Positions 4,767 through 23,433 of a stretch of DNA of 23,752 bases are shown piece after piece (position 1 is the first letter of the stretch; each line of letters opens with the position of its first letter). The DNA is from a virus. Position numbers and translations under genes: made by a program. The DNA lies in IMG/VR virus record IMGVR_UViG_3300048060_000074. One strand, written 5' to 3'. The notes beneath the pieces were generated by a model. That model was not told the DNA's origin, searched no databases, and saw nothing but the letters and a program-made list of their open reading frames with translations.

Positions 4767-4999
4767 TGGGCGACTGGACACTGGTTCAGTCAAGCAGGCG
4801 GTATGGGGAATGGAGTTATCAGTCCCCCACTGACGGAGAAACGTATTTTATACGTGTAAAACCGCCAGAATGGATTCCCTCGGCAGACATACCAAAGCTG
4901 ATGGAAAGACGAGAGATCGGATGCTGCGGGGATGCACCGATTACTGTGATCGAGATCGTTAGACCAACGGTGGACCAAATGAGGACAAAGCCTGGGTAG
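4766..4999 (+). CDS. Small hypothetical protein (77 aa, IGCCG motif)
   Basis: Fills the gap between terminator and tube genes with a TAG/GTG overlap; contains motif copy 2. Confidence 0.55.
   Translation: MGDWTLVQSSRRYGEWSYQSPTDGETYFIRVKPPEWIPSADIPKLMERREIGCCGDAPITVIEIVRPTVDQMRTKPG
4846..4861 (-). repeat. 16 bp motif, copy 2 (inverted, intragenic)
   Basis: TTTTATACGTGTAAAA on +, the exact reverse complement of copy 1. Confidence 0.9.
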
Positions 5000-6767: not shown

Positions 6768-9700
6768 ATGGCAGACGTAATAGAACTATATCGAGCAAAA
6801 CTAGAATACGATCTGGATTCAGACAGAGCTCTTTCTGAGGTCGAAAAGCTGCGAAAGCATATGAGAGGCTTTGCTGACGAGGTGAGCACCTTCGAGACCG
6901 AGGTCAAGGATTTTGGCACCGGCATCGCCCTTGCGCTGGAGGAACCTAGGCGGCCACTCAGGGATATGATGGCATTGTTCCGGGTTGGTCTAGAGGGCAT
7001 CAAAAAGGGAAGCGACGGCGCCGTAGGTGGGCTTTCCGCGATGTCTATTGCAGCAAGCGATCTGATCGGGCGCGTTGAGGGGATGGAAGATGTTGCCAAT
7101 GTCATAGGCGATCTTGGCCGGCTCGGGAAAACCGCTTCGGCCTTCTTCGACCGCCTGAGTGGGCGAGGTAGGGGGCTTGCCCAGGACATGAATCGTGTCA
7201 TGCGCATGACAAGCGAGCTTGGCGAAGTGATGGCTACTCAGGCTCGTGCGGTTCGCATTGCCCACCAGGATGAGCTTCGGCAGATCGGCGAGCGGATACG
7301 CAATATCAAGCTCGTAATCACCGAGCAGCGAAATCTTGCTGCCGAGATGGAGAAGCGTATCACTGCCGAGCAGCAGAGCGATGTTGCCATGCAGAAACGG
7401 CTTGTTATTTTACAACAGTCCGAAGACCTGATAGGCCGCAGGATTGATTTGTTAGTGCAAGAAAAAGATCGGATGACTGACATTGCGGATGCGGCTGAGT
7501 CTGGTTCCGAGAAACAGAAGCAAAGTTTGGCTAAGATAGAATCTATGGAGATTCGTTATGACGAATTACTCCAAAGGCGGCAGAGAACTACCCAAGAGAT
7601 CAACGAGATACAGGAAAAAGGCGCCGGTACTGAATCCCGCATCACCAAGTTGCGACAAGATGCCGCCAAGGCGACCGAGAAGATGTCTGCCGCCACAGCC
7701 AGTCTTGCCAAGCACCAGGAGGAGCACAATTTCAAGCTCCGTATCCAGGGCCCACTAATCCAAAACGCCGCCAAGCATATGCAGTCAGCGCGGACTGCCC
7801 TGCGCCACCTGGAAACAGGATGGGAGGCCACTGGCAAGATTGCAGATCAAAGACTCGCCGATGTCAATCGCGGGCTGCGGCTGTTTATGCAGGAGTCTCG
7901 CAGGGCAAGAAGGGCTGGCGTCGAGTTGCCAGCGGCGATGGTCAATTCGTACACGAAAGCCTCTCAGCTACTCGATATCTGGAATCAGAAAGCTAAGGAG
8001 CAGCGACAGGAGGCCGAGAAAGGAGAAAAGACTTCCAGGAAATTGACTGCTGCTACAGATGCGCAGGCCACTTCTGTCGAGGGCGCTGCGGTGGCTACTG
8101 ACAAATACGCCAAGAGCGTTTCCAAGGTAGAGCTATCAAGCCGCAAGGTATCGACCTCGATGCAGAATGTAAGCCAGTCGATTCGGACAGTTAGCAGGTC
8201 ATTTTCTGGCGTGTCGCCAATTATTTCACAAGCCACAAGCGTGGTCACATCGTTCTCTGACCAGATTACTTCGACATTTACTCGTGCTGCCAACCTTGCC
8301 GAAAGTGGCGCGAAGAGAATAAAGGTATCGCTGCTCGCCATTGGTGGTGTGCTCACTGCGCTTGGAGGTATCACTCTCGGCTTTCTGAAGAAAACTGGAA
8401 TGCTTGCCGCAGAGGTAAAAACCCTAGATGTGACGATGCGTACCGTGGCACGCAACCTGGCTATCAACGCCGGCGCTGATTGGCAAAAGTTCACGTCGTA
8501 TGTCGTCGACCTCAGAGACAACCTCAAAGGAATTACGACAAGAGAGGCTACAAAGGCAGTCACCTCATTTTTGATCGGCAAGCTGCCCATAGATAGATTG
8601 AATGACCTCGCGACCGCAGCCAAGAACTTTGGTGTTACCGTGGCGAACATGTCGTCGTCGCAAGTGCTTGGGCGATTCAACGAGTTCATCCAGTCTGGAA
8701 ATACTGCGCTCTTAAAGGCCATCGGCATTGTAAAGACTGCCGACGAAATGCACAAAGACTATGCAAAGACGCTGGGCATTACCACGAAGCAAATGACCGG
8801 CCAGCAGAAACAGCTTGCTCGTATCGAGGGCATACTTGGGCAGGTTGCGCTGACAGCGGGCGTCTACGGCGAGGCGATGAAGACTGCCGGAAAGCAGTTG
8901 TCATCTATGAGCCGTCTAATAGAGACCGCATTGCAACTTCTTGGCGAACGATACGAGCCAATGCTCGCCAGGATCATTATGGGCGTCAACAGTCTGCTCA
9001 AGTGGTTCGTAGAGCTTCCGCCGTTCGTCATAGATGCGGTTGCGGCGTTCATCAAGTGGTCGGCGATTCTAGGCACGATTTCTGGCATTGTCCTTGCCTT
9101 GGGCCCGGCTCTAAGTAAGCTCATCCCTATTATCAAGGTGATCGGTGCCCAATTCGCCAGGTCGTTGCCTGTCATATTTGCTATCGGGGCAGCGATAGGT
9201 ATCGTGGTTGCGGCTGTCAAGTTACTCCAGGCAGCGTGGCAGTCCGGCGCTGGCGCGGAGCTTGCAGCTTCCCTGAAACGTATCATCGACATGCTTCTGA
9301 ATCAGCTAAAGCCTGTGCTGGATGATATCCGGTTCTGGATTAACACCGTGCGATTTGCAGCGGAAGAGTTGTTTAGCGCTATAGCAGAGCTTCTTAGTAC
9401 CTTGCTAGGCGCCGCGTCCGAGGTCCTTGGCGCCGTGCAGTTGAATTTTCGCAGGGCGTTCAATCGCATCAGGGATATCGTCAATGGTGTTGGGCTGGCT
9501 ATCACCCAAACCTTGAGGGGTATCACCGCCCTCGTCCGTGGGGACACCGTTAAGGGCATGCAGTTTCTCGAAAGCGCCGTCGAGAATGTGCTGACTTCCA
9601 TTGCTTTACTTTTCAAGAACTTTATTGGCAAGGCGTCTGCCTGGGGATGGAATCTGGTCGTCGAGTTTGCGAACGGCATAACTCTGGCTGCCTCCAAGGT

Positions 9701-12479
9701 ATTAGCCAAGGTCATGAACTGGTTCGGTAGTGTCATTGGCAAGTTCCTAGCTCCTGGGTCTCCCCCAGAACGAGGCCCACTGAAGTTCATCGCCGATTGG
9801 GGCAAGGGACTGTCCGAGATATTCCTGCGCTCGTTCGCCTCGGCGGACTTTGGTATTTTGAGAGATGCTGTGGCTCCGATCCAGCAAGCCCTGCAATCCG
9901 CCGTCGCGGCAGGCGCACTTGATGAGGAAGACCTGATACCGTCTGTCCAGGCGGTCCGCAAGCAGATGGCTGGACTGATTGCCGATTTCAGGGAGACCGG
10001 CGAGATCAACGAAGAGATCATGTCGCAGATGAGTGAGCGTCTTGGCGAAGGTGGCGAGATGTTCTTGGAATACACACGTCGCGTCCTCGAACACCAGAAA
10101 GCTCTCAAGGGGTTAGAGGAGGTACAAGAGGACTATGCCGATGCGCAGGAAGCAGGATTTGTACCGAAAGCGTTACAGGACAGGCTGGCGGCAGCAGAGG
10201 AGGAAGTATCGGCGGCAGAAGAGGCCGTCAACTGGCAAAAGGAATACGTAGCTGCCCTTCAGGAAACCTCCGACTTGCAGCTTGAACAGTTGGCACTACT
10301 AGAGCGTATGGCGAAGGCAATGGAGAAAGGAATAGATCCAGCCAAGATGGGCGGTGCGATTGGCAAGGCGGTTGGAGCAGCCATAGAAGAAGCCATGCAG
10401 CTCGATTTTCCAGATATAGGCGCCGAGTCGATTTTTACAGGTTTCGAGGAGGGGCGCGCAAGGATTGGGCAGGTCTCTCAGGAATTCATCGACATGCGCG
10501 ATAGAGTACGCGAGGTTATCCAGTCTGTCAAGGACTGGATTGCTCTTCCGTTCAACGAGAAGATACTTGCGCTTGGCGAGTGGCTTACCGGAGTTGGCGC
10601 AGACTTTCTAAAATGGGCTGAGGATGTCACCGGGCTGGACTTTAGCAAGCTCGCCGAGGACATAGGAACGTTTGGGGAAGAGGCGCTGGGCTGGCTGGAG
10701 AAGATCACCGGATGGGATATTTCCGAGTGGGGCGAGAGCATCAAGAAAGCCGTAGGCGATGCTTGGGATTGGATAGTCGAGAAGGCCAAGTGGCTCTACG
10801 AGCAACTTGTCGGCGAATCCTACATCCCGGACACAGTCAACGAAACGATCACGTGGTTTGAAAAACTAGAGACGTGGTTCGCCAATAGCAAGATCGGCAA
10901 GTTCATCGACAAGATTGTTGAAGTGTTTGAAGCAATAGCTGGCGTCGTTGCATCTATAGGCGCTGCGACAGCCATCGTGGCGATCATTGCTGCCATAGCT
11001 AACTTTGGAACCATTGTGGCGGCTGTCGCCGGGCCTCTCGTTAGCCTCTATGAGACTGTAGTTCTCCTGGGGTTGGTTTTCGGGGAGGTTGCTGGAGCTA
11101 TAACGGCGACACTCGCGCCGGTGATTGCCATAGTCGCCGCCGTCGTAGCTGCAATAGCCCTCTTGGCATACGGTATCTGGAGCAACCGCGAGCAGCTTGT
11201 CGGAATCTGGCAGAGCCTCAAAGAAGAGTTCATGACGATGTGGAACCTTGTAAAACCTGCGCTGGCAGATATCTGGGATTTGTTGCGACCAATATTAACG
11301 GGAATTGGGATTGGGATTGCTGCGGTGGCCGGCTTTATTGGGGTGGTTTTGGTCAGCGCAATTCAGGCGCTCTGGGATCTTGTCGTAACAGCCCTGCCGT
11401 ACATTCAGAGGATCTTCAGTGGTGTTTTTACTTTCATTCATGGGCTAATCCAGACATTCATACTGCCAATTTTCTATACATTGATCGGTGTTCTCAACCT
11501 GCTGACAGGCAACAACGAGGAGGCCGCGCAAGCGTTTCAGAAGGCATGGGAGAACATTAAGGAGGGCGTGAAAAATGTCCTGGACGGGCTGTGGACTATC
11601 ATCAGCGAACTATTTCTCGGCATCCTGGATTCTCTGGGCGCGTTTATCAGTTCGTTCATAGAGCACTTTGTCGAGTGGCTTGGCAAGATATTAGAGCACT
11701 TTGGCATCATCGACGAGGAGACCAGAGAAAAGTGGGAAGCTCTCTGGAGCAACGTTTGGGAGAAAGTCAAAACAACCCTGGAGCAAATCTGGGAAATAAT
11801 AAAGTTCTTTGGGGAGGACTTTATAGAGTGGATAAGCGATCTAATCGAGGGTATCATTCAATGGTTCAAAGACCTGTACGATGCTCTCATTGGAAAATCT
11901 ATCATTACAGACCTGGTCGAGGGCATTCTTGGCCTATGGGAAGACCTTGTAGACGGCACGGTCGAGTGGTTTCAGGATTTGTACGATGCCATCGTCGGTA
12001 AGGTGCAAGAGGTCTACGATGATGCCATTGCTATAGCTGAGACGTTCGTAGACATCGGGACAAAGATCGTAGAGAATATCGTCGCCGGCGTGAACGAAAA
12101 GATCGAGTGGGCCAAGACTCAGATCAAAGAGGGGTGGGACAAGATCAAGGAAACCTTGCCCTTCTCCGAGCCCAAGGACCGCACCTCTCCTCTATACGGG
12201 CTAGGCAAGGCCGGCGAAGCTATCATGAGCAATATCGTCGAGGGCATGGGAAACTTTGATGTCTCTGGTGCGGTTGGTGCGCAGCTAGGCAATATCACTG
12301 CGCAGCTTGCCACGGCATCGCCGACGAACAATTACAACCGTCAGTATAACATTGGGGCCGGCGCAATCCAGGCCAGTTTTCCAGGAGTAACGCGCGGGAT
12401 CGACGCGGGAAACGTCATGGGCGTACTCCAGGGACAGGTTGATACTGCAACCCAGATGGGGCATTTCAGACCAAGCTAG
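6768..12479 (+). CDS. Tail tape measure protein
   Basis: 1903 aa, Ala-rich and helical, coiled-coil N-terminus, hydrophobic segments and Trp/Phe-periodic repeats; follows the G/GT chaperone. Confidence 0.92.
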   Translation: MADVIELYRAKLEYDLDSDRALSEVEKLRKHMRGFADEVSTFETEVKDFGTGIALALEEPRRPLRDMMALFRVGLEGIKKGSDGAVGGLSAMSIAASDLIGRVEGMEDVANVIGDLGRLGKTASAFFDRLSGRGRGLAQDMNRVMRMTSELGEVMATQARAVRIAHQDELRQIGERIRNIKLVITEQRNLAAEMEKRITAEQQSDVAMQKRLVILQQSEDLIGRRIDLLVQEKDRMTDIADAAESGSEKQKQSLAKIESMEIRYDELLQRRQRTTQEINEIQEKGAGTESRITKLRQDAAKATEKMSAATASLAKHQEEHNFKLRIQGPLIQNAAKHMQSARTALRHLETGWEATGKIADQRLADVNRGLRLFMQESRRARRAGVELPAAMVNSYTKASQLLDIWNQKAKEQRQEAEKGEKTSRKLTAATDAQATSVEGAAVATDKYAKSVSKVELSSRKVSTSMQNVSQSIRTVSRSFSGVSPIISQATSVVTSFSDQITSTFTRAANLAESGAKRIKVSLLAIGGVLTALGGITLGFLKKTGMLAAEVKTLDVTMRTVARNLAINAGADWQKFTSYVVDLRDNLKGITTREATKAVTSFLIGKLPIDRLNDLATAAKNFGVTVANMSSSQVLGRFNEFIQSGNTALLKAIGIVKTADEMHKDYAKTLGITTKQMTGQQKQLARIEGILGQVALTAGVYGEAMKTAGKQLSSMSRLIETALQLLGERYEPMLARIIMGVNSLLKWFVELPPFVIDAVAAFIKWSAILGTISGIVLALGPALSKLIPIIKVIGAQFARSLPVIFAIGAAIGIVVAAVKLLQAAWQSGAGAELAASLKRIIDMLLNQLKPVLDDIRFWINTVRFAAEELFSAIAELLSTLLGAASEVLGAVQLNFRRAFNRIRDIVNGVGLAITQTLRGITALVRGDTVKGMQFLESAVENVLTSIALLFKNFIGKASAWGWNLVVEFANGITLAASKVLAKVMNWFGSVIGKFLAPGSPPERGPLKFIADWGKGLSEIFLRSFASADFGILRDAVAPIQQALQSAVAAGALDEEDLIPSVQAVRKQMAGLIADFRETGEINEEIMSQMSERLGEGGEMFLEYTRRVLEHQKALKGLEEVQEDYADAQEAGFVPKALQDRLAAAEEEVSAAEEAVNWQKEYVAALQETSDLQLEQLALLERMAKAMEKGIDPAKMGGAIGKAVGAAIEEAMQLDFPDIGAESIFTGFEEGRARIGQVSQEFIDMRDRVREVIQSVKDWIALPFNEKILALGEWLTGVGADFLKWAEDVTGLDFSKLAEDIGTFGEEALGWLEKITGWDISEWGESIKKAVGDAWDWIVEKAKWLYEQLVGESYIPDTVNETITWFEKLETWFANSKIGKFIDKIVEVFEAIAGVVASIGAATAIVAIIAAIANFGTIVAAVAGPLVSLYETVVLLGLVFGEVAGAITATLAPVIAIVAAVVAAIALLAYGIWSNREQLVGIWQSLKEEFMTMWNLVKPALADIWDLLRPILTGIGIGIAAVAGFIGVVLVSAIQALWDLVVTALPYIQRIFSGVFTFIHGLIQTFILPIFYTLIGVLNLLTGNNEEAAQAFQKAWENIKEGVKNVLDGLWTIISELFLGILDSLGAFISSFIEHFVEWLGKILEHFGIIDEETREKWEALWSNVWEKVKTTLEQIWEIIKFFGEDFIEWISDLIEGIIQWFKDLYDALIGKSIITDLVEGILGLWEDLVDGTVEWFQDLYDAIVGKVQEVYDDAIAIAETFVDIGTKIVENIVAGVNEKIEWAKTQIKEGWDKIKETLPFSEPKDRTSPLYGLGKAGEAIMSNIVEGMGNFDVSGAVGAQLGNITAQLATASPTNNYNRQYNIGAGAIQASFPGVTRGIDAGNVMGVLQGQVDTATQMGHFRPS

Positions 12480-12486
12480 AGTTTGG

Positions 12487-12502
12487 TTTTACACGTATAA
12501 AA
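12487..12502 (+). repeat. 16 bp motif, copy 3
   Basis: TTTTACACGTATAAAA; 12487-12514 matches 165-192 at 27/28 positions. Confidence 0.9.
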
Positions 12503-12518: not shown

Positions 12519-15059
12519 ATGGCAGCAGGAATCTTCACAGTCATACCACGTTCTCCGGGTATTGCGTCTATCACGTGCTCTATCATCGGGGACGGCGGGA
12601 CGACAGATTATCAGGTCATCCCCGACTCGGTAGACATCCACGAGGTGGAGCGAATCAAGATCGCTTATGCGGAGGGCAAGGTCGGCGGGCATGTCCAGGG
12701 CATCACTCGGTCTTTGGCCCAATTCCAGTTCGATGTGGTGATATTCGGCACGAGTGAGGCAAATGCTCAAGCTAACATGCGCACGTTCCAGCGGGCGATC
12801 ACCGACCCTATGGGTGGGCATGTACAGTATCGCCCTTCTGGCCTTGGGGGAAGTGTTATCTCTACATACTACCATTACCTGATGTCCCCGCCGATGCAGC
12901 TTTTTCCTGTTGCCGGTGTTCAGGGTCGTGCCCGTGCCTGGACGCGACCTGGTGGCGCCATAACAGATGAGGCGTATCGCTATCGGGCCACGTTGATGAC
13001 CAAGGCGTGGGGGACAAGTGACCCAACCTCGTATAGCTCCATCGTTACGTCGACAGGGGTGGACAACGAGGGAGGGACAATGGTTGTGCCTGCCTCCAGT
13101 ATTAAGGGCGATGGCGCGCTTGGGGTGCTAGAGGTGGTCGGGACAATGAGCTCTGGCGATGACGTGCTCAAGAACGCCATTGTCTACAAGCGAAAGATGC
13201 GGGTTGGCAATAACTCTGACCTCGACTGGATCGAGGCTGAAAATATGCAGGATCCTGTCGGCGGAAATTATAACTATGCGGTGTTTTGTGGTATTGTTTG
13301 GAGAGCGCCGGAGGGAGACACAAATTATCCTATTGATATTGTAGACGACGGGTTTGATACAGACAGTCTGACGACAGCAAAAATGCAAGCGGACGGCGAC
13401 GATCTGCGCGTATTCAATGGGGGAGTGGAGATTGATCGCTGGCTATATGACATGGACAATGCTACAACTCAGGTATGGTGCAACCTGGACTTTGCGGTGG
13501 CGATCAGCATGACGCTGAATGGGGGCATATCTAGCAGCATTCAGTCAGTGGTTGTAAACGAGAGCATCGCCGGAATGCCTAGCACTGGCATCATTAAGAT
13601 AGATTCGGAGTACCTGTCCTATAGCTCGAAAAACAATTCCAGTAAAACGTTTACGATATCTAGTCGCGGCTATGGAAATACGACCGCAGCCTCTCATTCA
13701 GATTCAGTTGCTACTTACTGGGTGCAGCATGACCTGTGGATTGTTTATGGAGACGCGGGCGCTTCGACCCCTGCCGTTAATGATGACTACGAGCCAGCGT
13801 TTGAACTGAGTTCTACAAACGGCAGTTGGGTTTACCAAGAATTTGGCGAAGATGACGGGTTCAGAACTGCCGGATGGATTGTTTATAATGGCTGGTTGGG
13901 GTACTACAATGGCAACCGTCGCGCCGCCGCTGATCCCTGGATCGAGATCGGGCTCGGGCCTGCGGCCTTGGGTGAGTTATATTGGTATTTGCACAACCCA
14001 TGCCAGATTACCAACGCGAATTTTACAAACGGCGAAAGCCTTCGGAATGTTTCTGCCGGGTTCTGGACTGGCGAGATTCGGTCGAGCCAAAACGGATCGG
14101 CATGGACGACCGAATACACAATTCCCGATCCTGCCGTGGCAGGCGTATGGGACTCGTGGAGCAGAAACGAGGCAATTACGGCTGGTGCTACTTACGTCTC
14201 AATGTATCTTCAAATAAGCACCGATGTGCTCAACCAAGATTCTCTTGAGGCCGCAGATTGCACATTGACTCTTAACCCATCATACACTCCAGTCGTAACT
14301 GTAGAAGCGGAAATTGCTTACGCCTGGACGCAAATTGGCGATGCGGCTGCTTCTGGAAATAATTATATGAGGCTTGGCATTCCGGTATCGTATCTTGCGA
14401 TAACATCATCCAACACCGCCGGAATGGATCGTACATATACCGGCAAAGTCTCTCCTCTTGTCATTGCAAGATGTGATGTTGGAACAAACTACAATGTCCA
14501 CTGGGTGGTGTATGTGTCAAACAGGGTTGCGTCCTGGCAAACATCTAGGGTGGTCTTGCTGGAAGGGTCAACTTATTGGAAGTGCTTGTATCAGTTTGGG
14601 GAGATAGACCTGCCTCCGTTTCCAATCCCAGATTATGTTTCCGAAGCGAATATAGACAGCTATATTGATACGGTGTTTATCGAGCTTACGTTCACCAGAA
14701 TATCTGGTGGCGGCAACATTGAGGTGGACGCTGTTTGTCTTGCCAAAGCAGACGAATGGATTTCTCATGTCTATAACTCTGTAGACTCGACAGGTTTGCA
14801 AGAATCAACGGATGACACGTTGGTCATAGACGCTGTCGAGAATATCACCCATACCAAGGATGCTTCCGATCTAGTGAAACAGTACTGGGAACGACAAGGC
14901 GTACCACTTAGCCAGCTTGCTTTTGATAAGCGGTTCGATCACCGCCTCAGGGTGGTTGGATTTATGGATACGTCTACTTATAAATATACACCGACATACA
15001 CATTTAACGTTGTTCTCACAGGACTTTTTCTAACCATCTTTCCTTTTTCCGAGACTTAG
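12519..15059 (+). CDS. Distal tail (Dit-like) protein with inserted accessory domains
   Basis: First gene after the tape measure gene; 846 aa, beta-rich. Contains a DUF2341-like segment (KMQADGDDLRVF...VWCNL...IVYGD) and EAE..DAAASG carbohydrate-binding-like motifs. Confidence 0.55.
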   Translation: MAAGIFTVIPRSPGIASITCSIIGDGGTTDYQVIPDSVDIHEVERIKIAYAEGKVGGHVQGITRSLAQFQFDVVIFGTSEANAQANMRTFQRAITDPMGGHVQYRPSGLGGSVISTYYHYLMSPPMQLFPVAGVQGRARAWTRPGGAITDEAYRYRATLMTKAWGTSDPTSYSSIVTSTGVDNEGGTMVVPASSIKGDGALGVLEVVGTMSSGDDVLKNAIVYKRKMRVGNNSDLDWIEAENMQDPVGGNYNYAVFCGIVWRAPEGDTNYPIDIVDDGFDTDSLTTAKMQADGDDLRVFNGGVEIDRWLYDMDNATTQVWCNLDFAVAISMTLNGGISSSIQSVVVNESIAGMPSTGIIKIDSEYLSYSSKNNSSKTFTISSRGYGNTTAASHSDSVATYWVQHDLWIVYGDAGASTPAVNDDYEPAFELSSTNGSWVYQEFGEDDGFRTAGWIVYNGWLGYYNGNRRAAADPWIEIGLGPAALGELYWYLHNPCQITNANFTNGESLRNVSAGFWTGEIRSSQNGSAWTTEYTIPDPAVAGVWDSWSRNEAITAGATYVSMYLQISTDVLNQDSLEAADCTLTLNPSYTPVVTVEAEIAYAWTQIGDAAASGNNYMRLGIPVSYLAITSSNTAGMDRTYTGKVSPLVIARCDVGTNYNVHWVVYVSNRVASWQTSRVVLLEGSTYWKCLYQFGEIDLPPFPIPDYVSEANIDSYIDTVFIELTFTRISGGGNIEVDAVCLAKADEWISHVYNSVDSTGLQESTDDTLVIDAVENITHTKDASDLVKQYWERQGVPLSQLAFDKRFDHRLRVVGFMDTSTYKYTPTYTFNVVLTGLFLTIFPFSET

Positions 15060-15061
15060 AT

Positions 15062-17122
15062 ATGTCGTATCGGCCTTTCATTCCAGTTCAAATCGAAACC
15101 TACAACGAAGGCAACCGGCAGAGTATCATAGGTGATGCTACCGGGCTTTCTTTCTCGTCCCACTACGGCGAGGGCGGGAGCGGCTTCGGGTTCTGCAAGT
15201 TCGTGCTTGGACGCGAGGTCGGCAATGATTACAGAGACATAGGTTTTGGCTACCGTCTCATTGTGCGCAAGTACCTTGGCACGATCTTGTTCGATGGGCA
15301 GATCAGACAGATCGGCGAGAAAGCAGGTGCAGGTGGAGACGAGATAGAGATTGGCGCGCTTGGACACCTCATAGTTGCAGAGGACGACGAGTTCACTCGC
15401 CGCATCTGTGATACCAGGGCCAGCGAGTGGGAGATGGATAGCGAGGTGCCCACCGGCAGCTTCCAGCCCGGCAAGTTCACCGTCAACAGTGGCGCAACCG
15501 GCATCGTGATATACTCCAGCAATAACCAGGTTCTATCTGCTGGCGACTATACACAGGTCGTCTATGATTTTGAATCAGACGAGAATGGGGAACGGCTAAA
15601 GTGTAACCTCTCGATGGTACTTGGGTATGGAAATCTCAACGGCGCAGGCCCAAACTTCTCCGCCGAGATAGCGTCTATTTCGGGCACAGTGATCACCTAC
15701 ACCAATGACACTGGCGAAAACAACCTTGCGGCTGACCAGATTCTAGCCAACATCACCAAAAAGGGCACAGCCACAATCTCGTCGAACAACACTGGGGCCG
15801 ACACGATCACTGTGTCAGATGCAGATCACATCGACAAGTGGGAGACTGGGGATACTGTTTTTGTGGGCGCTCCGTACTTTGAGGCTACGTTCTCGTCCTT
15901 CGCTGGAACGACCCTGACGTACTCTGGCCCAACTGGCGAAGCTGAGGCGGCAGCGGCCACCGGGTGGGTCGTCCATAACGTCGACGAGGACGAGTACGCC
16001 GAGGTCGCAAGCTGGAACGAGGGCAGTGACCAGTTTGACGTAACAAACGCCGGAGACATCACCGGCAACTGGACGAACGGCGACACGATCCGGATCTATA
16101 CCCCGTTTGCGTTACAAGTCAGGGAAGAGGACGGCACGATGATTTGGCCTGCTTCCGACTGGCGGGAAGGCGCGATACCTAGGTCATGGACGGCGGTCAA
16201 TGTAACCCCATCCTCCGCGTCTACAAAGTTCATAGTACGGCTCACGTGTTACGTCGCTGGCAGCGCAGGCGAGTCCACGTTTGCCAACCTGAACTCGCTC
16301 AGGGTCTACTCGGTTACAGACGAAACGGTAACATCTCAAACCCTGGCTACTGAGATACTGAGCATCCTAAGTGCTGCCGGACATGATCTGAGCAGTGATA
16401 CTGATGATATCGAGGCGATTTCCAAGACGCTAGAGCCAGCCGTGTTCGAGTACGCAGCGCCATCCCAGGTGATGTCCTGGGTATGCAAGGCCGGGGACGG
16501 ATCGGGGAACCTGCTTGCCTGGGGAGTTCGGTTGACTGATGGCAGGAAGTTCTTTCTCGAAACGCAGGATAGGTCCACGATTGACTATAAGGTCCGTCGG
16601 GATGTCCCTGTTGAGGCCAGTGTTTCTGGCGATGTTCAGGGCTCGGTGCAGCAGGTCCGCATCGTGTACGAGGATGAGTTGGGCGTTCGACAGCACACTG
16701 ATTGGCTATCAGACGAGGATGCCTATTTTGCGGGCCACTTCCGCCGACAAAGTGTAAAGGTGGATAACATCAACACCGCAGACGAGGCTGACGAGCTCGC
16801 TGCCTTGTTTCTCAGTGAGAGCAAGCAGGCAAAGCGACAGGCCAACTATACTGTCAGCGAGGGCGCGGTGTTTACGCCAGCCGACCTGATCGTGCCAATC
16901 GACGAGGTGAAGGCCACTGGGCGGATGGTGACCATCGAAGATTGGCGCTCTGTGGAGACTGGAGGGTCGACGACGGACATTCGTGACTCGTGGACGCAGG
17001 AGAACATCGTCGTGGTGCAGATCGATTATGAAAACAGGACTGCACAACTAACGCCTGCTGGAGCGAAGGACACCTTTACCAGGTACATCGCCGAGCTATC
17101 CAGGATAAGGAGCGGTTTATGA
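15062..17122 (+). CDS. Tail tip hub (Tal/gp27-like) protein
   Basis: Second gene after the tape measure gene. N-terminal LFDGQIRQI..IEIGALG and C-terminal ADELAALFL patterns of hub proteins; internal tandem duplication. Confidence 0.55.
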   Translation: MSYRPFIPVQIETYNEGNRQSIIGDATGLSFSSHYGEGGSGFGFCKFVLGREVGNDYRDIGFGYRLIVRKYLGTILFDGQIRQIGEKAGAGGDEIEIGALGHLIVAEDDEFTRRICDTRASEWEMDSEVPTGSFQPGKFTVNSGATGIVIYSSNNQVLSAGDYTQVVYDFESDENGERLKCNLSMVLGYGNLNGAGPNFSAEIASISGTVITYTNDTGENNLAADQILANITKKGTATISSNNTGADTITVSDADHIDKWETGDTVFVGAPYFEATFSSFAGTTLTYSGPTGEAEAAAATGWVVHNVDEDEYAEVASWNEGSDQFDVTNAGDITGNWTNGDTIRIYTPFALQVREEDGTMIWPASDWREGAIPRSWTAVNVTPSSASTKFIVRLTCYVAGSAGESTFANLNSLRVYSVTDETVTSQTLATEILSILSAAGHDLSSDTDDIEAISKTLEPAVFEYAAPSQVMSWVCKAGDGSGNLLAWGVRLTDGRKFFLETQDRSTIDYKVRRDVPVEASVSGDVQGSVQQVRIVYEDELGVRQHTDWLSDEDAYFAGHFRRQSVKVDNINTADEADELAALFLSESKQAKRQANYTVSEGAVFTPADLIVPIDEVKATGRMVTIEDWRSVETGGSTTDIRDSWTQENIVVVQIDYENRTAQLTPAGAKDTFTRYIAELSRIRSGL

Positions 17123-19374
17123 CCGTCATATCGCTTCAAGAAGTAGATAGAGAGATCAGGCGGCTGGTACGGTCTGTCGGCAAGCTGGAGGAAAAAGACC
17201 GGCGGATCATGGAGCGCATCGCTGCCGTATCAGGCAATGCGGTTCTGGACGAGCTAACGCTGAACACCCTCAATGTCACAACCATCGTCGTTGGAGAAAT
17301 TGTGGATGGTGTTGACGTGGGCGCCTGGAATGCCGACCAGTTCGTTGTCATGGCGCTAAGTAGCGAGATGCCTAACGAGAGGGTCTTGACCGCTGGTGAT
17401 GGCATAGATGTGACGGACGGCGGCGCAGGCAGCACCGTGACTATTGCCGTCGATGTAACTGACATCCTGGGCACTGGAATAGGCGAGGATGGTGCCAACA
17501 ACCTCGTGCTGCCAACTCCTGGCACATTGACGGTCTCCACGGGCAATGCAGAGGCAGCGCCGCATACGCACGCGGTCACATCTTCCAGCAATCCAGGAGT
17601 GGCAGCGTCTATTTTGGCGACTGACGCGAGCGGGAACGTGACTGTTCAGGACATCACCGCAGCCGATGATATGTATCTTGGTGATATTCTGTACCGCAAT
17701 GGCGACACAAACACATACATCAACGGCAATGCCGATCAGTGGATTCACTATGCTGGCGGCGCAGAGTTTATGCGGTTCACCGAAGCGGCGCAGGACGAAA
17801 CCAGATTTAACAACGCTGGTGCTGACATAGACTTCATTGTCGAGGCCAGCGGTGTGGCAGACGCGTTTCAGGTGCTTGGCAGCAATGGGCAGATTACCCT
17901 TGGTGCGCTTGGCGCCGGGTTTGTTCAGTCAAGTGCTGGCGGCGTCCTATCATCGGCAGCGATCGGGGCTGGCGATCTGCCAGCGCATACCCACGCCGGG
18001 GCTGGACAGGGCGGGCAACTGGATTGGGACGACGTGTGGAGCGACGCTGTACACACGCACGCGAATGCTGGCGAGGGCGGCGCTACGATCAGCGCAACGC
18101 TCTACGATGCCGCAGCGACAGTCAGCGCCGTTTTCACGCACTCAGCTAATATTGCGCTTGACGATGGTGTGGGGGATTCGCCGGTACTTCAGTTTGTCGG
18201 CGGCTCAAACGAACTGGCGACGCTCTATTTCGATGATACAGCACGCGCGCTAGTGACTACTATCGAGGATAATCAAGCAATCGCCTACAGTATACTCGAC
18301 GATGGCGCTGGCGACCTGTTCATGCAAATTGTTACCACGACAGGCAGCGAGGCCGTTGTGTTCAACAACGGAGGCGACGATGTCGATTTCCGCGTCGAGG
18401 GAACCGGAGAAGCAAATGCCCTAGCCGTCCAGGGCAGCGACGGTTTTGTCGGCGTCGGCACGGCTGCCCCAGGCGCGAGATTGGAAATCAGCGGAGGCCG
18501 AACGCTGGAAGTAGATGTGGATTCAATCGCTGGAATCGCAATAGTCCAAAGTGACGATGCGACAACGTCGCTTGATATCAATAATGTAGCCATTGGCGGG
18601 GACACACGAATATACGCTACCGAGGACATCCATTTTAGGACAGCGACGGTGGATCCAGCGGCCACCATTGTAAGGGCCGGAACGTTCTACATCAACGAGT
18701 CAACAAATGCAGACATGGCGGGGTCTGGCCTGACGATAAACCAAGGCGTGAATGATGACGAGATCCTTGCCGTCAAAAGTAGCGACATCGACCACCCATT
18801 CACCGACCTTGCCGAGAACGATACCTATGGCACATTCACAAAAGCCAACGCGCTTGGCGGCGGCCTCCAGATACGAGGCTACAGAGACGCAGACGGCGAC
18901 AACGATTTGGCGGTACAGATCGCCGGCTTTTTGGGCGAGGCGGCAGACACTACAAAAGACACTTCAGGCCGTGGCATAGTCGAGATCTTCGCAGCGATAA
19001 CAGATGGCGGTACGGGCATCGCAGTCCCAGGGGCCGATGCCAATGTGCTCACGATACGAGTCGGCGGAGGGACAACCCGGTTTATTTTCGATGTGGAGGG
19101 CAGCGCGCATGCCGATGTCGAGTGGACGACTTTTTCAGAGCATGACGACATCGCCTTGCTAGGCGCTCTAGAGCGAGAATTTGAACGACGGCGCGATCCC
19201 GCTCGGGCTATGGTTGGCGGTAATGAGGATCGCCATGTCCTAGAGGATGCAAAGATCGTCACTTTCTACGATGATGGACCCCGAGGGATGGTGAACACGA
19301 CGCGGCTGGCGATGTTGCTTGTCGGCGCGCTACGCCAAGCTGGGGAACGAATAGCACTACTGGAGGGAGCATAA
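17119..19374 (+). CDS. Tail fibre / receptor-binding protein with chaperone-like C-terminus
   Basis: 751 aa, Gly/Ala/Asp/Thr-rich. N-terminal coiled coil, HxH motifs, FNN.G.D.DF.VE repeats, VGVGTAAP motif, C-terminal VNTTRLAMLLVGALRQ..RIALLE. Confidence 0.75.
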   Translation: MTVISLQEVDREIRRLVRSVGKLEEKDRRIMERIAAVSGNAVLDELTLNTLNVTTIVVGEIVDGVDVGAWNADQFVVMALSSEMPNERVLTAGDGIDVTDGGAGSTVTIAVDVTDILGTGIGEDGANNLVLPTPGTLTVSTGNAEAAPHTHAVTSSSNPGVAASILATDASGNVTVQDITAADDMYLGDILYRNGDTNTYINGNADQWIHYAGGAEFMRFTEAAQDETRFNNAGADIDFIVEASGVADAFQVLGSNGQITLGALGAGFVQSSAGGVLSSAAIGAGDLPAHTHAGAGQGGQLDWDDVWSDAVHTHANAGEGGATISATLYDAAATVSAVFTHSANIALDDGVGDSPVLQFVGGSNELATLYFDDTARALVTTIEDNQAIAYSILDDGAGDLFMQIVTTTGSEAVVFNNGGDDVDFRVEGTGEANALAVQGSDGFVGVGTAAPGARLEISGGRTLEVDVDSIAGIAIVQSDDATTSLDINNVAIGGDTRIYATEDIHFRTATVDPAATIVRAGTFYINESTNADMAGSGLTINQGVNDDEILAVKSSDIDHPFTDLAENDTYGTFTKANALGGGLQIRGYRDADGDNDLAVQIAGFLGEAADTTKDTSGRGIVEIFAAITDGGTGIAVPGADANVLTIRVGGGTTRFIFDVEGSAHADVEWTTFSEHDDIALLGALEREFERRRDPARAMVGGNEDRHVLEDAKIVTFYDDGPRGMVNTTRLAMLLVGALRQAGERIALLEGA

Positions 19375-19631
19375 TGGCAACGCCTAAAACGCTCACGGCA
19401 TACGACGCCCAGCAACATCGGCTAGTGTTGCTCCAACAGGGCACGGCGATCCACGTGGAGCGGGCCTACTCACTAGTTGACGATGTAGGTGATGCGCTCG
19501 ATCCGCCGACTGGCGGCAAGCTCGTCACGGATATTCAATGGAGCGCCGTTCCCGCAGGTGTCCAGGCAGCGCTCACAACGATCAACACCTGGACATACAA
19601 TCAAATTCTGTCCAAGGAAGGAATGACGTAA
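19374..19631 (+). CDS. Hypothetical protein (possible fibre-associated protein)
   Basis: 85 aa, TAATG coupling to the fibre gene, GGAG RBS. Confidence 0.6.
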   Translation: MATPKTLTAYDAQQHRLVLLQQGTAIHVERAYSLVDDVGDALDPPTGGKLVTDIQWSAVPAGVQAALTTINTWTYNQILSKEGMT

Positions 19632-19856
19632 ATGCACATCATAGTGCTTTTGAGCAAGCAAGGCGAGAAGATCACAGTCAGCTATGAGCTTGGCGCTGGT
19701 GTAGGGAAAGAACTTGCCGCGAACGCCCTCCGGGCAGCGGAGTCGTTGATCCAGAGGGAAATTATAGAGGCAAGGATCAGACAGGAGTTACAGCCGACCA
19801 TCGAGGCAGAAACGGGCCAGGAGGTACAAGATGAGCAGGCCAGCAGGGCGCCTTAA
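19632..19856 (+). CDS. Hypothetical protein
   Basis: 74 aa, abuts the upstream stop codon, AAGGA RBS. Confidence 0.55.
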   Translation: MHIIVLLSKQGEKITVSYELGAGVGKELAANALRAAESLIQREIIEARIRQELQPTIEAETGQEVQDEQASRAP

Positions 19857-20214
19857 CGCTTCTTTGGTCATCGAGGAATTCTTGCTCGACGTGTGGGAGG
19901 GTATTCCTGCCAGCACGGACTCGGTGGCTAATTCGTTGCAGCGGTTCCGTTCCGAGTTCGAGGCAATCGTATACCGCCTGAAGGAGCAACACGAGCAGGA
20001 AGGGCAAAAGATGGACCTGCTCACCGGCCAGTGGAAAGAACTCCACGACCGCGAGGGCCGGACGATAGATCGGATGGTCGACAAATTGGCGTACCTGAAG
20101 ACCATCGAGATCGCCGCCGGGGATACGGCTACCAGAGCTACGGTGATCGAACCACTGGTTCGCCACCTGAGAGAGTTTCTGAAGGAAATTGGAGATGAAG
20201 ATGACAGTTCATGA
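19831..20214 (+). CDS. Hypothetical all-helical protein
   Basis: 127 aa, AGGAGG RBS, overlaps both neighbours, amphipathic helices. Confidence 0.6.
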   Translation: MSRPAGRLNASLVIEEFLLDVWEGIPASTDSVANSLQRFRSEFEAIVYRLKEQHEQEGQKMDLLTGQWKELHDREGRTIDRMVDKLAYLKTIEIAAGDTATRATVIEPLVRHLREFLKEIGDEDDSS

Positions 20215-20539
20215 GAGGATGCTCAACAGCCTGTCGCTAGGCATAGTCTTGTCCACGAAGGACGGGCGGATACTGGAAGCAAATCAATCCGCGCAGGAGA
20301 TGCTGGGCTATACACTGGAAGAGCTAAGGGGAATCCACGCGCGCGATTTGTGGTTATATCCCGAACAACGACCAGCCATTATGCGTGAGGTACTGAGTAG
20401 CTGCGAGGCTGTTTTGAAGCAGATAGAGCTAGTCGGGCATGACGGGGTTGCTTTTTGCTTTGAAGTGAGCATGAAGCATTTTGGGAATGGAGAGCACGAC
20501 GCCGTGATGTCCCAGTTGAAGTTCGCCGGGGAAGAGTAG
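20201..20539 (+). CDS. Stand-alone PAS domain protein
   Basis: ERMLNSLSLGIVLSTKDGRILEANQSAQEMLGYTLEELRG..ARDL..PEQR...IELVGHDG..FCFEVS is a canonical PAS S-box signature. Start could be 20195 or 20201 (GGAG at 20191). Confidence 0.85.
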   Translation: MTVHERMLNSLSLGIVLSTKDGRILEANQSAQEMLGYTLEELRGIHARDLWLYPEQRPAIMREVLSSCEAVLKQIELVGHDGVAFCFEVSMKHFGNGEHDAVMSQLKFAGEE

Positions 20540-20558
20540 GTTCCTAGAGGAGATTGGC

Positions 20559-21113
20559 GTGCCGTCCTGGATCAACCAATACGGACCATGGTTTGCCGTG
20601 GTCTTCCTGTTGATTCTATTTTCTGACAAAGTAGCCGAAAGCATGCAAAAGGTGCTCGCGGTTTTTTCGCCTGGCGTGGCTGAGAAGCTACGACACGCTA
20701 AGGAAACTGCCCAGTGGCGGCGCGAACAGATCGAACGGGAGTATGTGGATACGGTCAAGAGCCAGAAGGACTTCATTTTGGAGATGAAGAGCCAGGCTCA
20801 GGAAGAGCGCGACCGCGCAGACAAGCAACGCCTCGACTGGCAGCAGCGGGCCGATGAGCGGGACCGTCTCTATCGTGAGGAACGCGACCACTTGCAGGTG
20901 AAAATCGAGAGGCTGATGGAACAGCGCACCGATGATTATGAGCGGCTGGGCCGCCAGTTTGCTGAGCTGGAAACGCGGAATATCGACATGAACAGGCAGC
21001 AAATCGAGTTGCTTGGCATGCAGACCAGGCGGCTGGATCTGATCAGTCTCACACTTGCCAGCGAGAAAGGCTTTCCTAGTCGGCAGATGTTGCCTGTGAA
21101 GGATGGAGAGTAA
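20559..21113 (+). CDS. Single-TM coiled-coil membrane protein (holin-like candidate)
   Basis: N-terminal hydrophobic YGPWFAVVFLLILFS, loosely like BhlA-type holins, then a long charged coiled coil; last gene of the late block. Confidence 0.5.
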   Translation: MPSWINQYGPWFAVVFLLILFSDKVAESMQKVLAVFSPGVAEKLRHAKETAQWRREQIEREYVDTVKSQKDFILEMKSQAQEERDRADKQRLDWQQRADERDRLYREERDHLQVKIERLMEQRTDDYERLGRQFAELETRNIDMNRQQIELLGMQTRRLDLISLTLASEKGFPSRQMLPVKDGE

Positions 21114-21115
21114 AC

Positions 21116-21147
21116 AAAAAACCCGACCTTCGCGAAGGTCGGGTTTT
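21116..21147. terminator. Bidirectional intrinsic terminator
   Basis: Perfect 30 bp palindrome AAAACCCGACCTTCGCGAAGGTCGGGTTTT (21118-21147) between convergent genes. Confidence 0.88.
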
Positions 21148-21159
21148 ATACGTGTAAAA
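21144..21159 (-). repeat. 16 bp motif, copy 4 (inverted)
   Basis: TTTTATACGTGTAAAA on +; its first four T's are the + strand U-tract of the terminator. Confidence 0.9.
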
Positions 21160-21164
21160 TCAAA

Positions 21165-21740
21165 CTAGAATGGCGGCGTGTCTAGTATCCAGGAATCGAG
21201 GACGCCAGACGGCGGAACGACCCGTCCTACAGGACGGAAAGTCTCGTAGAATTTCGACCACCCGGGCCCTACTTGCACTATGCTTACCCCTTTCTTGCAT
21301 CGCCCCTTTATCACGCCATCACCACGGATGAATTCTGGTCTCTTTGTTAGGTGGCACACCCAGAACTCCCGATATAGGTCCTCATACCAATTGTACCCGA
21401 GAACACTCTTGACGATAAGATTTGCTTTGGTGACCCTTCCGGCATCGTACTCCTCGACCAGCTTCCGTGCCCACAGATGGGGTTTTGCCAGCTTGTTGCT
21501 TTTGGACGACGGTGGATTTAGAAACACTGTGCCATGCCATGGCCCTCCCAGTGCGTTGTCGCCCTTTCCATAGTACGTGATTGCCTCGACGGCCAGGTTG
21601 GCCTCGTAACAGCTTGCTGGGTCGAGGTCGATAACGCCTAGGTTCGCGCGCACAAGCTCGACGAGCCAGGCTGGTGTATACCACTCCTCGCTCTCTGCCG
21701 TGAACGTGGTCACATGCGTTTGCTGATTTACTGCACGCAT
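21165..21740 (-). CDS. Phage-type DNA N6-adenine methyltransferase-like protein
   Basis: EEWYTPAWL...IDLDPAS...WHGTVFLNPP pattern of the phage Dam family; catalytic motif reads NPPS; GGAGG RBS. Confidence 0.75.
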   Translation of the reverse strand: MRAVNQQTHVTTFTAESEEWYTPAWLVELVRANLGVIDLDPASCYEANLAVEAITYYGKGDNALGGPWHGTVFLNPPSSKSNKLAKPHLWARKLVEEYDAGRVTKANLIVKSVLGYNWYEDLYREFWVCHLTKRPEFIRGDGVIKGRCKKGVSIVQVGPGWSKFYETFRPVGRVVPPSGVLDSWILDTPPF

Positions 21741-22612
21741 ACTTCTTCCTCCATTGGTAACTGGATCTGCACGTCGACCGGGATGCCCGGCGACAGCCAG
21801 ATGCTTTCCGTCCTTCCCACGCCAGCGTTTCCGGTGGTCTTCCAGGACACGCGATTCCAGCCGTGGTCCTCGTACAACTCCCGATATAGCTCAGATGCGT
21901 AGCCAGAGATGATTGCCCGCCCCCGCATTCCCCGGAGCAGCCGCGCGAGCCTCACGTGATCGTCTGCTGTCCAGTCATGTAAGTAAAACCCACCGGATGT
22001 CCGCTGTGTCCCCTTTGACAGATACGGCGGGTCCAGATAGAACAATGTGGTCTCGCCGTCGTACTTTGGGAATTCCTCAAAGAAATCTCGGCACTCTATC
22101 TGGACGCCCTGCAATCTCCGGCTTATCACGTACAAGTGTTCGAGTTGCACCTCCGTCCTGGAGGCAGGTTTGCCAGGCGGCTTCTTGCCTGGTTTTTGCC
22201 CAGTCGTGTGCCGCCATCCCGACTTGCTGAAGGCCATGGCGCCTATAGACTGTATCTGCCCGACCCACAGAATGCGGGCCTTCTCTACAGGGTCGTCTGG
22301 GGGACTGTCAAGGTAGAGGCGGTGCCTCTCGTATTCGATCCTCGACCACGGCGTCAGCCATATTGCCCTGACCAGGTCGTCTGGACGGTCGCGCAACACC
22401 TGGAAATAATTCGTATACCAGCCATTCACATCGAATGTCGTTTCCAGGTAAGAGCGCGGCTTTGACAGCAGCACGCTCAATGTGCCGCCCATCCCTTCGA
22501 CGTAATGTTGCTGCTTCATTTCCGGGATGTACGGCACAATGTGAGGCGCGTTGTTCCATTGTGCACCGTAGAGCCTAAGGGCGGGACGGTTGCTTGCTAC
22601 TTCTATCCTCAT
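21728..22612 (-). CDS. D12-class (Dam-like) DNA adenine methyltransferase
   Basis: Start reassigned to ATG 22612 (ATGA overlap). RLQGVQIECRDF, TLFYLDPPY, DHVRLA, IISGY and RTESIW are typical of MethyltransfD12. Confidence 0.85.
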   Translation of the reverse strand: MRIEVASNRPALRLYGAQWNNAPHIVPYIPEMKQQHYVEGMGGTLSVLLSKPRSYLETTFDVNGWYTNYFQVLRDRPDDLVRAIWLTPWSRIEYERHRLYLDSPPDDPVEKARILWVGQIQSIGAMAFSKSGWRHTTGQKPGKKPPGKPASRTEVQLEHLYVISRRLQGVQIECRDFFEEFPKYDGETTLFYLDPPYLSKGTQRTSGGFYLHDWTADDHVRLARLLRGMRGRAIISGYASELYRELYEDHGWNRVSWKTTGNAGVGRTESIWLSPGIPVDVQIQLPMEEEVCVQ

Positions 22613-23433
22613 GGTTCTTTCACCCCAAGCCGTCGCCAGAACTCTGCGTAGGCGTATGGATTTCTTACCAGAGATTGTACGGTATGCCCCTCCTTCGTAG
22701 CCCTGTCGCCCCGGTATGTCCACGAAACACCGATCACGTTGCCCTGCCCATCACGGCGCCTGAAGAACCTGACCTTTTCGCTTGAGTTTGTGCTGGCAGG
22801 CCGCCCGGCGCGAACGGTTTGCCTAACGGCTGGTGCTGTTATCTCGTGGGGGGTTGCGGACCAGGTATCCACGATATGCCAGGCAACCATCTCCGAAGGC
22901 GTGTCTCCATGCAGAATGAACCCCTCGCGGACCTCCAGGATTTCGCCCGTTTTCATATCGTACTTGAGCACCGGAGAGGTATCCACCCCTCGATTGGTGC
23001 TCAGGAGAGCCCTGGCCACGTATACGCCGTCCTCGCATAGAAACAGGTGTTCTGCCTTGAGCCCCGGCAAGTAGTCCATGATGCGCATATATGCCAGAAA
23101 CTCGTTAACCGTATAGCGCCCGCGATGGTGTTGGACGCACCAGTCCTCGACGAAGGCGCCCCATGTGTCAAAGCTGGCATACTCGAACAACCGAAATCGC
23201 CTGATGAGGTGCAACTCGTATATGCCTGCTGTGAAGTCCTGAACCGCCTTTGTTATATGCGCATTCGCACCGGCGTCTAGTTCGTGCAGAAGGGATATCC
23301 CTTCTTGTTTCGTAAGCAGCCCGTCAGCAGCCTTCTGGATGAGATTAAGCGTCGTCTTTTTGGTCAGCCGGATCTGGGACAGCAGGTTCTCCGGCAGTGC
23401 CGGTATCATCGCCGTTGTCGGTTCCGTCGTCAT
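22609..23433 (-). CDS. Hypothetical protein (274 aa)
   Basis: Start reassigned to MTTEPTT (ATG 23433), preceded by GGAGGA. LFEYASFDTWGAFVEDW..GRYTVNEFL resembles F.TW..Y helical phage DNA-binding segments. Confidence 0.6.
   Translation of the reverse strand: MTTEPTTAMIPALPENLLSQIRLTKKTTLNLIQKAADGLLTKQEGISLLHELDAGANAHITKAVQDFTAGIYELHLIRRFRLFEYASFDTWGAFVEDWCVQHHRGRYTVNEFLAYMRIMDYLPGLKAEHLFLCEDGVYVARALLSTNRGVDTSPVLKYDMKTGEILEVREGFILHGDTPSEMVAWHIVDTWSATPHEITAPAVRQTVRAGRPASTNSSEKVRFFRRRDGQGNVIGVSWTYRGDRATKEGHTVQSLVRNPYAYAEFWRRLGVKEP

Follow-up and report, generated by a model that had tools for sequence, protein, structure and literature searches.

The timing of phage lysis is understood for only a few model systems, and it was not until 2026 that genetics brought to light lysis regulators with one transmembrane domain (TMD), to date in actinobacteriophages alone. 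LysF1b of phages Girr and NormanBulbieJr, a protein of 124 amino acids (aa), has one N-terminal TMD in an N-out/C-in orientation, followed by an extended helical cytoplasmic tail that is ~50% charged; its deletion gives small plaques, altered timing and a low burst, and ~80% of M. smegmatis phages carry a LysF1b-like protein, of 92-150 aa and 30-50% charged, in 20 phams with minimal identity (PMC13056207). LysA2b of phage D29 (gp30, 88 aa) is encoded downstream of the tape measure gene, at a distance from both the lysins and its two-TMD partner LysA2a; normal lysis requires LysA2b, LysA2a and LysA2b are cytotoxic only together, and the authors proposed that the one-TMD protein is the activator of its two-TMD partner (bioRxiv 10.64898/2026.08.27.747656). 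Here we describe a locus in IMG/VR virus record IMGVR_UViG_3300048060_000074, analysed as a stretch of 23,752 nucleotides (nt) that is hereafter called the window, in which three consecutive genes at the end of the late block encode a 127-aa helical protein, a 112-aa protein that is only a PAS domain, and a 184-aa protein with an N-terminal hydrophobic helix and a long charged tail. Our tentative choice among several readings, held at less than even confidence, is that the three genes form a lysis-regulator module in which the 184-aa protein has two cytoplasmic partners.

The holin T of phage T4 also has one TMD, but with its N-terminus inside and a large globular periplasmic domain, and it is controlled by the antiholins RI, which is periplasmic, and RIII, which is cytoplasmic. 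By analogy, the logic suggested here would be similar, a one-TMD lysis protein being set by small separate proteins of which one is cytoplasmic; there is, however, no homology between the two systems, RI and RIII are not PAS proteins, and a superinfection-type signal is not known here. A phage-encoded PAS protein has been described in vibriophage VP882, whose quorum-sensing receptor VqmA-Phi combines a PAS with a helix-turn-helix domain, binds 3,5-dimethylpyrazin-2-ol (DPO) and acts on transcription from the lysogen (PMC8284805). In VqmA-Phi the PAS domain links a signal to the lysis decision, whereas the protein described here is a bare PAS with no helix-turn-helix, encoded in a late structural operon. 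With the exception of VqmA-Phi, a search of the literature found no PAS domain linked to a holin or to a phage lysis cassette.

The 184-aa protein and the genes coupled to it

The likeness of the 184-aa protein to LysF1b and LysA2b is one of architecture. It has a single N-terminal hydrophobic helix (marginal in this case), its basic residues come only after that helix, and its extended helical tail is more than 40% charged (43%), which lies within the published range of 30-50% (PMC13056207). As with LysF1b and LysA2b, the sequences of the family are diverse while the architecture is conserved and, as with D29 LysA2b, the gene is found in the tail-gene region with a two-TMD candidate elsewhere in the genome. 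In the AlphaFold2 model, which has a predicted local distance difference test score (pLDDT) of 82 overall and above 90 over most of the protein, there are helices at residues 3-20 and 22-36, the second amphipathic, and then one continuous helix from residue 38 to 169. Over this last segment 43% of the residues are K, R, D or E (45% with His) and heptad occupancy is only moderate; instead of a classical coiled coil, this segment of ~130 residues could form a single charged helix. There is no K or R in residues 1-22 and there are five in the next 30 (K24, K31, K43, R45 and K48), from which an N-out/C-in topology is predicted by the positive-inside rule alone. If the tail is cytoplasmic, the PAS and four-helix proteins could reach the 184-aa protein.

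The most conserved stretch of the protein is its N-terminus (P2, W4, Q7, G9, P10, W11, LLIL at 17-20 and K24), which includes the conserved motif W-x-x-Q-x-G-P-W, and there is no Cys. The family has four members in all, three relatives having been found among 5.8 billion clustered proteins. The protein has no match in Pfam, PHROG or PADLOC and belongs to no known holin or spanin family, and a Foldseek search of BFVD with the long-helix model returned nothing. Several candidate assignments were rejected. Two sub-threshold NCBIfam coiled-coil matches suggesting the N-terminus of RNase Y (E 0.02-0.035) reflect coiled-coil composition only, and a feature search of a protein atlas gave scores of 0.80-0.87, below the meaningful level, among which a BhlA-holin-like cluster at 0.81 is a chance match. 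A class III holin of the T4 T type was set aside because there is no Pfam or PHROG holin match and the C-terminal part is a single long helix and not globular.

Two coupled cytoplasmic genes precede the gene for the 184-aa protein, an arrangement that is not seen in the mycobacteriophage systems. Genes 1 and 2 overlap by 14 nt, a spacer of 19 nt separates gene 2 from gene 3, and the sequence GGAG stands before each start. It is this translational coupling that suggests that the PAS and four-helix proteins act with the 184-aa protein. A terminator lies directly after gene 3 and also ends the leftward genes that converge on it; therefore, the three genes are truly the last of the late unit. An earlier note on this DNA, made from the sequence alone, had described three tightly packed genes ending the late block, and this is fully borne out: all three open reading frames (ORFs) are present, they are last in the operon and they are translationally coupled.

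The same note had called the first gene product a helical protein of 127 aa, and its AlphaFold2 model is indeed a four-helix bundle (pLDDT 73, predicted template modelling score (pTM) 0.62), with helices at residues 10-24, 29-63, 66-99 and 102-125. The protein has no Cys and no signal sequence, and only three homologues, with two orthologues, were found among the 5.8 billion clustered proteins. Fold searches with the model (Foldseek against the PDB and BFVD, the ESM Atlas and VIA wide) returned only generic helical bundles, the best with a Z score of 10.9, within the noise for helical proteins. A hemerythrin-like bundle was considered and rejected, since there are only two invariant His residues (H54 and H112) and the di-iron set of H, HxxxE, HxxxH and HxxxxD is lacking; the Pfam Hemerythrin match (E 0.07) is below the cut-off and the structural similarity to DcrH-Hr (Z 9.0) does not rise above helical-bundle noise. 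The anti-RecBCD protein Abc2 of phage P22 was likewise rejected: its profile match reaches 15.9 bits where the cut-off is 25 (E 0.015, with two of the three homologues at similar E), and a PDB profile search gives 8b1t at E 0.87. TCAD9, the internal head protein phrog_5750 and Csm2 were rejected as weak family leads.

The PAS protein and the conservation of the cassette

The longest ORF of the PAS gene begins at TTG 20189 and would encode 116 aa. The start is most likely ATG 20201, giving 112 aa, since GGAG is found 6 nt upstream and the metagenome gene calls use this ATG. The protein is a PAS domain, with matches above the curated cut-offs to Pfam PAS_9 (PF13426; 6.6e-12, 46.1 bits against 27), Pfam PAS (PF00989; 9.2e-12, 45.4 bits against 22.6) and the NCBIfam sensory_box TIGR00229 (7e-11, 42.4 bits against 22.9), the profiles covering residues 4-105 of 112. 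No second domain and no output domain is found in Pfam or NCBIfam. The protein has two Cys (68 and 86), five His and no signal sequence, and so agrees with the description in the earlier note of a PAS-only protein of ~112 aa with two Cys, several His and no output domain.

The only orthologue among the 5.8 billion clustered proteins is P0002, with 75% identity. An exhaustive HMMER search gave 18,636 hits, in which the best non-orthologues are long multi-PAS proteins whose individual repeats are ~30-44% identical to the phage protein. No cellular PAS repeat is closer than ~44% identity and the guanine-plus-cytosine (GC) content of the gene equals that of the phage. The low identity argues against a fragment recently captured from a kinase, an origin that the earlier note had raised for a host kinase; judged by its sequence, the protein is a cytoplasmic PAS of a generic kind. 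Among sequences with solved structures it comes closest, though only weakly, to the PAS domains of the kinase ThkA (3a0r, E 1e-3) and of TodS (5hwt, E 7e-3). The PAS core fold is shared with these and with PYP and the short LOV proteins, but the ThkA and TodS domains are parts of kinases, and, unlike PYP and LOV proteins, the phage protein has no chromophore-binding motif and no recognisable PYP-type site. The LOV motif GxNCRFLQ with its adduct-forming Cys is absent; the matching segment reads GIHARDLWLYPE, and Cys68 and Cys86 lie elsewhere. The inferred F-helix (PEQRPAIMREVLSS), placed by alignment to PAS profiles only, contains no His; in heme-PAS domains of the FixL/DosP type the proximal His is found on this helix.

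Two relatives of the cassette are readable, L003 (75-79% identity) and L004 (52-69%), and both keep the gene order of a gene resembling the 74-aa gene that precedes the cassette, then the helical, PAS and TM-helix genes. In L003 these follow the tail of an 85-aa gene, and the overlaps are as in the window. Nei-Gojobori ratios of nonsynonymous to synonymous substitution (dN/dS) between the window and L003 are 0.05 for the 74-aa gene, 0.08 for the helical gene and 0.09 for the PAS gene, figures that are rough since synonymous sites are near saturation; by this sequence measure, all three genes appear to be under strong purifying selection. The GC content of the cassette as a whole equals that of the remainder of the phage, and the cassette is a long-standing component of this phage group that selection has maintained. 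Sequences of this lineage are very rare. No further relatives were found in IMG/VR (by TM protein, PAS alignment or exact 40-mer), in JGI (Joint Genome Institute) metagenome contigs by a pattern scan with the TM alignment, or by blastn and tblastn against 50,697 GenBank phage records, and the terminase gave no host clue in GTDB genomes.

The membrane protein of L004 has no detectable similarity to the 184-aa protein (hhalign probability 1%), and yet it has an N-terminal TMD (Kyte-Doolittle value 3.51) followed by a long charged helix. The layout of helical, PAS and membrane-helix genes therefore outlasts the sequence of the membrane partner. The helical gene of L004 carries an 18-codon in-frame deletion, and its PAS protein is reduced to 75 aa by the in-frame loss of 33 codons, corresponding to residues 51-83, that encode the F-helix, G-strand and G/H loop; what is retained comprises strands A/B and H/I together with helices C-E. 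At L004 548-1082, then, both genes are internally deleted in frame, yet intact and overlapping, and amount to a natural 'minimal' pair.

In PAS domains the F-helix, G-strand and G/H loop form the ligand pocket, while the face of the sheet makes protein contacts. Since the deletion in L004 removes the pocket and retains the sheet face, the conserved job of this protein would be to bind a protein and not a small molecule. Furthermore, neither Cys68 nor Cys86 is conserved among the window, L003 and L004, which also argues for an adaptor. It is more likely that the PAS is a protein-binding adaptor that acts through its beta-sheet face than that it is a small-molecule sensor. A programmed frameshift fusing the helical and PAS genes, the latter being in the +1 frame in all three lineages, was considered and rejected; a separate start is present for the PAS gene in every lineage, and in the window this start is served by a Shine-Dalgarno sequence of its own, so that ordinary coupling is the simpler reading.

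A possible role in lysis and its alternatives

It is plausible, by analogy, that the cassette is a membrane-directed module with a LysF1b-like effector, and the 184-aa protein probably works like a regulator of the LysF1b type, although it is not claimed to be one. The analysis shows the genes, with their folds, position and conservation and the selection that acts on them; a link to lysis, mutual binding of the proteins and the membrane topology are what we infer. In such a scheme the late-expressed module would act at the inner face of the host cytoplasmic membrane, where the 184-aa protein would be anchored by its short N-terminal hydrophobic helix, N-out/C-in, with the charged helix of ~130 residues projecting into the cytoplasm. 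Like LysF1b and LysA2b, it would activate a separate two-TMD holin-like protein and in this way set the lysis time and the burst size. The signal-less four-helix and PAS proteins would be cytoplasmic partners that modulate the 184-aa protein, the PAS acting as a protein-binding adaptor through its beta-sheet face. A bolder version, which we consider improbable as a whole, is a hitherto undescribed three-protein lysis clock in which the PAS and four-helix proteins dock on the charged helix of the one-TMD trigger and release or hold it in response to a host metabolic or redox cue, the trigger then activating a two-TMD holin encoded elsewhere. A complex prediction for the 127-aa and PAS proteins scored 0.00, under the mark, and is evidence neither way.

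Lysis and signalling genes were sought in record positions 1173-86609 of the 89,481 bp (95%), where precomputed Pfam matches were available for all called genes; in addition, 46 different proteins were scanned against PHROG and 26 against Pfam. Besides a terminase, a Mu-type portal and an extensive glycosylation island, the precomputed matches comprise RuvC, FtsK, DUF2227, RNase H, a metallophosphatase, radical SAM enzymes and a pair of methyltransferases; they contain neither an endolysin or a holin nor a histidine kinase, a GGDEF domain or any other signalling output. The PHROG and Pfam scans revealed no lytic enzyme, their only related hit being the weak 'endolysin' match in the tape measure that is described below, although most proteins of this divergent phage match nothing and absence is not demonstrated. 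The observation in the earlier note that no kinase or endolysin is recognisable in the window thus extends to the whole of the range searched. A hydropathy scan found one good small membrane protein, of 73 aa, with two TMDs, a charged N-terminus and a predicted N-in/C-in topology, whose gene lies near those of the DUF2227 protein and the FtsK-like ATPase in the leftward unit. No other candidate of the class II holin type was seen in the genome, and this protein is a candidate for the two-TMD partner of the 184-aa protein.

Several points weigh against a lysis module. There is no endolysin adjacent to the cassette or recognisable in 95% of the genome, nor was a lysin A or B found such as LysF1b and LysA2b phages have; the 'lysis' label is therefore drawn only from position and architecture, and the suggestion in the earlier note that the genes occupy the usual lysis position has no backing. 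The 73-aa candidate has a sub-threshold match and lies in an opposite, probably earlier, transcription unit. At 184 aa, the membrane protein is longer than the LysF1b- and LysA2b-like proteins (88-150 aa) and it has no sequence similarity to them, a tblastn search against the same 50,697 phage records, D29 and F1 phages included, having given no match at E 0.01. Its hydrophobic core, FAVVFLLILFS, is at 11 residues shorter than theirs, and no 19-residue window exceeds a Kyte-Doolittle mean of 1.53, against the usual 1.6, so that membrane insertion is likely but borderline. Where the earlier note had a transmembrane segment and a long coiled coil, therefore, the N-terminal hydrophobic helix and the ~130-residue helix stand, while the first is borderline as a membrane segment and the second is perhaps not a coiled coil. 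The upstream neighbour of the membrane homologue P0005 (62% identical) is a 123-aa gene without a recorded PAS match, and the PAS may not be obligatory beside the membrane protein. Whether the PAS gene is kept in syntenic relatives, a question that the earlier note had raised, has accordingly a mixed answer: it is present in L003 and L004, internally deleted in the latter, and perhaps absent upstream of P0005. Finally, in contrast to the mycobacteriophages, this phage probably has a non-actinobacterial host.

Alternatively, the cassette may be a late accessory module unrelated to lysis, serving superinfection exclusion, the tethering of assembling particles or DNA, or some other change in host physiology. 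Tethering of this kind is known from phi29, where p16.7 holds DNA at the membrane for replication. This explanation is somewhat unlikely, but it is the strongest of the rivals. In phages, the genes that directly follow the fibre genes often have accessory or exclusion roles, there is no endolysin nearby, and all three proteins are orphan or generic, with unspecific fold searches. On the other hand, the cassette is in the late structural unit and not in a position expressed early or in lysogeny, none of its proteins is similar to known exclusion or defence proteins, and the architecture fits the LysF1b type well.

A true split sensor, in which the PAS binds a host metabolite, a cofactor or a redox signal and gates the membrane protein, is improbable, to about the same degree as the lysis clock. 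The fact that L004 has lost the pocket-forming F-helix and G-strand and yet keeps the gene in place speaks against sensing, as do the lack of a LOV NCRFL motif and of a His on the inferred F-helix, the two non-conserved Cys and the weakness of the nearest solved PAS matches (ThkA 1e-3, TodS 7e-3). The PAS core is, however, complete in the window and in L003 and under purifying selection, and it is established that PAS domains commonly signal through adjoining helices. On balance, the redox or ligand sensing put forward in the earlier note is disfavoured by the non-conserved Cys residues, by the lack of a recognisable cofactor motif and by the loss, in one lineage, of the part that forms the pocket.

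Slightly less probable again is a decoy, in which the output-less PAS, perhaps with its two partners keeping it at the membrane, would pair with the PAS of a host kinase or cyclase and silence or hijack its signalling late in infection. The domain resembles the repeats of multi-PAS sensors (~30-44% identity), all three lineages conserve the beta-sheet/N-terminal half that is used in PAS-PAS contacts, and no signalling output was found among the phage's own genes. Expression at the very end of the late operon would leave little time for reprogramming, however, and no close host homologue points to a specific mimicked target. Taken together, the decoy and a membrane function other than lysis carry about as much weight as the lysis-regulator module that we favour.

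Lastly, it is very improbable that the 184-aa protein is an i-spanin of the Rz type, with an N-terminal TMD and a periplasmic coiled coil bridging to the outer membrane. It does have an N-terminal hydrophobic helix and a long helix, and its gene ends the late operon, but it has no o-spanin partner: none of the + strand frames of 19300-21160 contains an ORF with a lipobox, whether embedded in the gene, overlapping it or after it, and the stop codon is directly followed by the terminator. Moreover, it has no positive charge before the TMD and basic residues after it that predict a cytoplasmic C-terminus, its helix is unbroken where two with a hinge would be expected, and it has no Cys and no Rz family match.

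Genomic setting and significance

The window was taken from a JGI metagenome contig of 89,481 bp (sample 3300060479), its positions being record positions minus 46345, and the same phage is present in two Logan runs. The phage as a whole is unusually divergent. On the + strand of the window there is a morphogenesis block of siphovirus type, ~21 kb long, with a decoration protein, a major head protein and a 1903-aa tape measure. Three large tail/fibre-like proteins of 846, 686 and 751 aa (window 12519-19374) follow the tape measure, and after them come five small genes, the last three of which are the cassette. No Pfam or NCBIfam match was found for the three large proteins, and the sole PHROG match among them is a weak one of the 846-aa protein to phrog_7578 (function unknown; E 3e-4). 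The tape measure (window 6768-12479) has eleven hydrophobic segments and matches the 'endolysin' PHROG phrog_971 weakly (3e-7); Pfam detects no lytic domain in it.

The late block opens with a perfect sigma-70 promoter at 53-81 (TTGACA-17-TATAAT, extended -10 (TG), 12/12). A strong terminator follows ~40 nt further on, at 118-149, and the first head gene lies just beyond. Together with a copy of a 16-bp motif at 165-180, the promoter and terminator look like a late-operon leader needing antitermination. The motif, TTTTATACGTGTAAAA, has four exact copies in the window (165-180, 4846-4861, 12487-12502 and 21144-21159) against 0 expected, and the copies are located at module boundaries. At the end of the convergent leftward unit (21165-22723, - strand), Dam-family and D12-class N6-adenine DNA methyltransferases are encoded side by side.

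Immediately upstream of the cassette, the 85-aa gene has no match in Pfam, PHROG or NCBIfam, and in L003 it is the C-terminal 22 residues of its homologue that precede the cassette. The 74-aa gene has a 66-aa homologue (83% identity) at the same position in L003, and is weakly similar to the N-terminal half of a 129-aa gene upstream of the L004 cassette (E 7e-4). The features are collected in Table 1.

Table 1. Features of the cassette, its surroundings and the two-TMD candidate (window coordinates unless given otherwise)
Feature	Position	Strand	Basis and remarks
85-aa gene, no family; belongs to the context of a conserved five-gene tail-end block	19374..19631	+	ORF; start overlaps stop of 751-aa fibre-like gene
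74-aa gene, no family	19632..19856	+	ORF; overlaps 127-aa gene by 26 nt
127-aa protein (gene 1), acidic and cytoplasmic, of an orphan family; up-down four-helix bundle predicted	19831..20214	+	ORF and AlphaFold2
112-aa stand-alone PAS protein (gene 2)	20201..20539	+	GGAG 6 nt before ATG; overlaps gene 1 by 14 nt
184-aa protein, candidate one-TMD lysis regulator (gene 3)	20559..21113	+	GTG start, GGAG 6 nt upstream; AlphaFold2
Terminator hairpin, 13-bp stem, flanking A/T runs, bidirectional	21118-21147	.	Closes late unit and convergent leftward unit
16-bp dispersed motif TTTTATACGTGTAAAA, copy overlapping terminator tail	21144-21159	.	Exact copy
73-aa two-TMD holin-like candidate	L013 2320-2541 = record 13102-13323	-	Weak Phage_holin_5_2 match, E 0.017

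The cassette is distinctive in having a four-helix protein as third partner and a natural pocket-deletion variant. Even if it has nothing to do with lysis, an output-less PAS that strong selection maintains among the last genes of a virion operon is without a published explanation. If the lysis-regulator reading is true, the class of one-TMD regulators would extend beyond the mycobacteriophages to a very divergent sediment phage, and the cassette would offer an example, simple and open to testing, in which a domain of signalling type is connected to a phage membrane effector.

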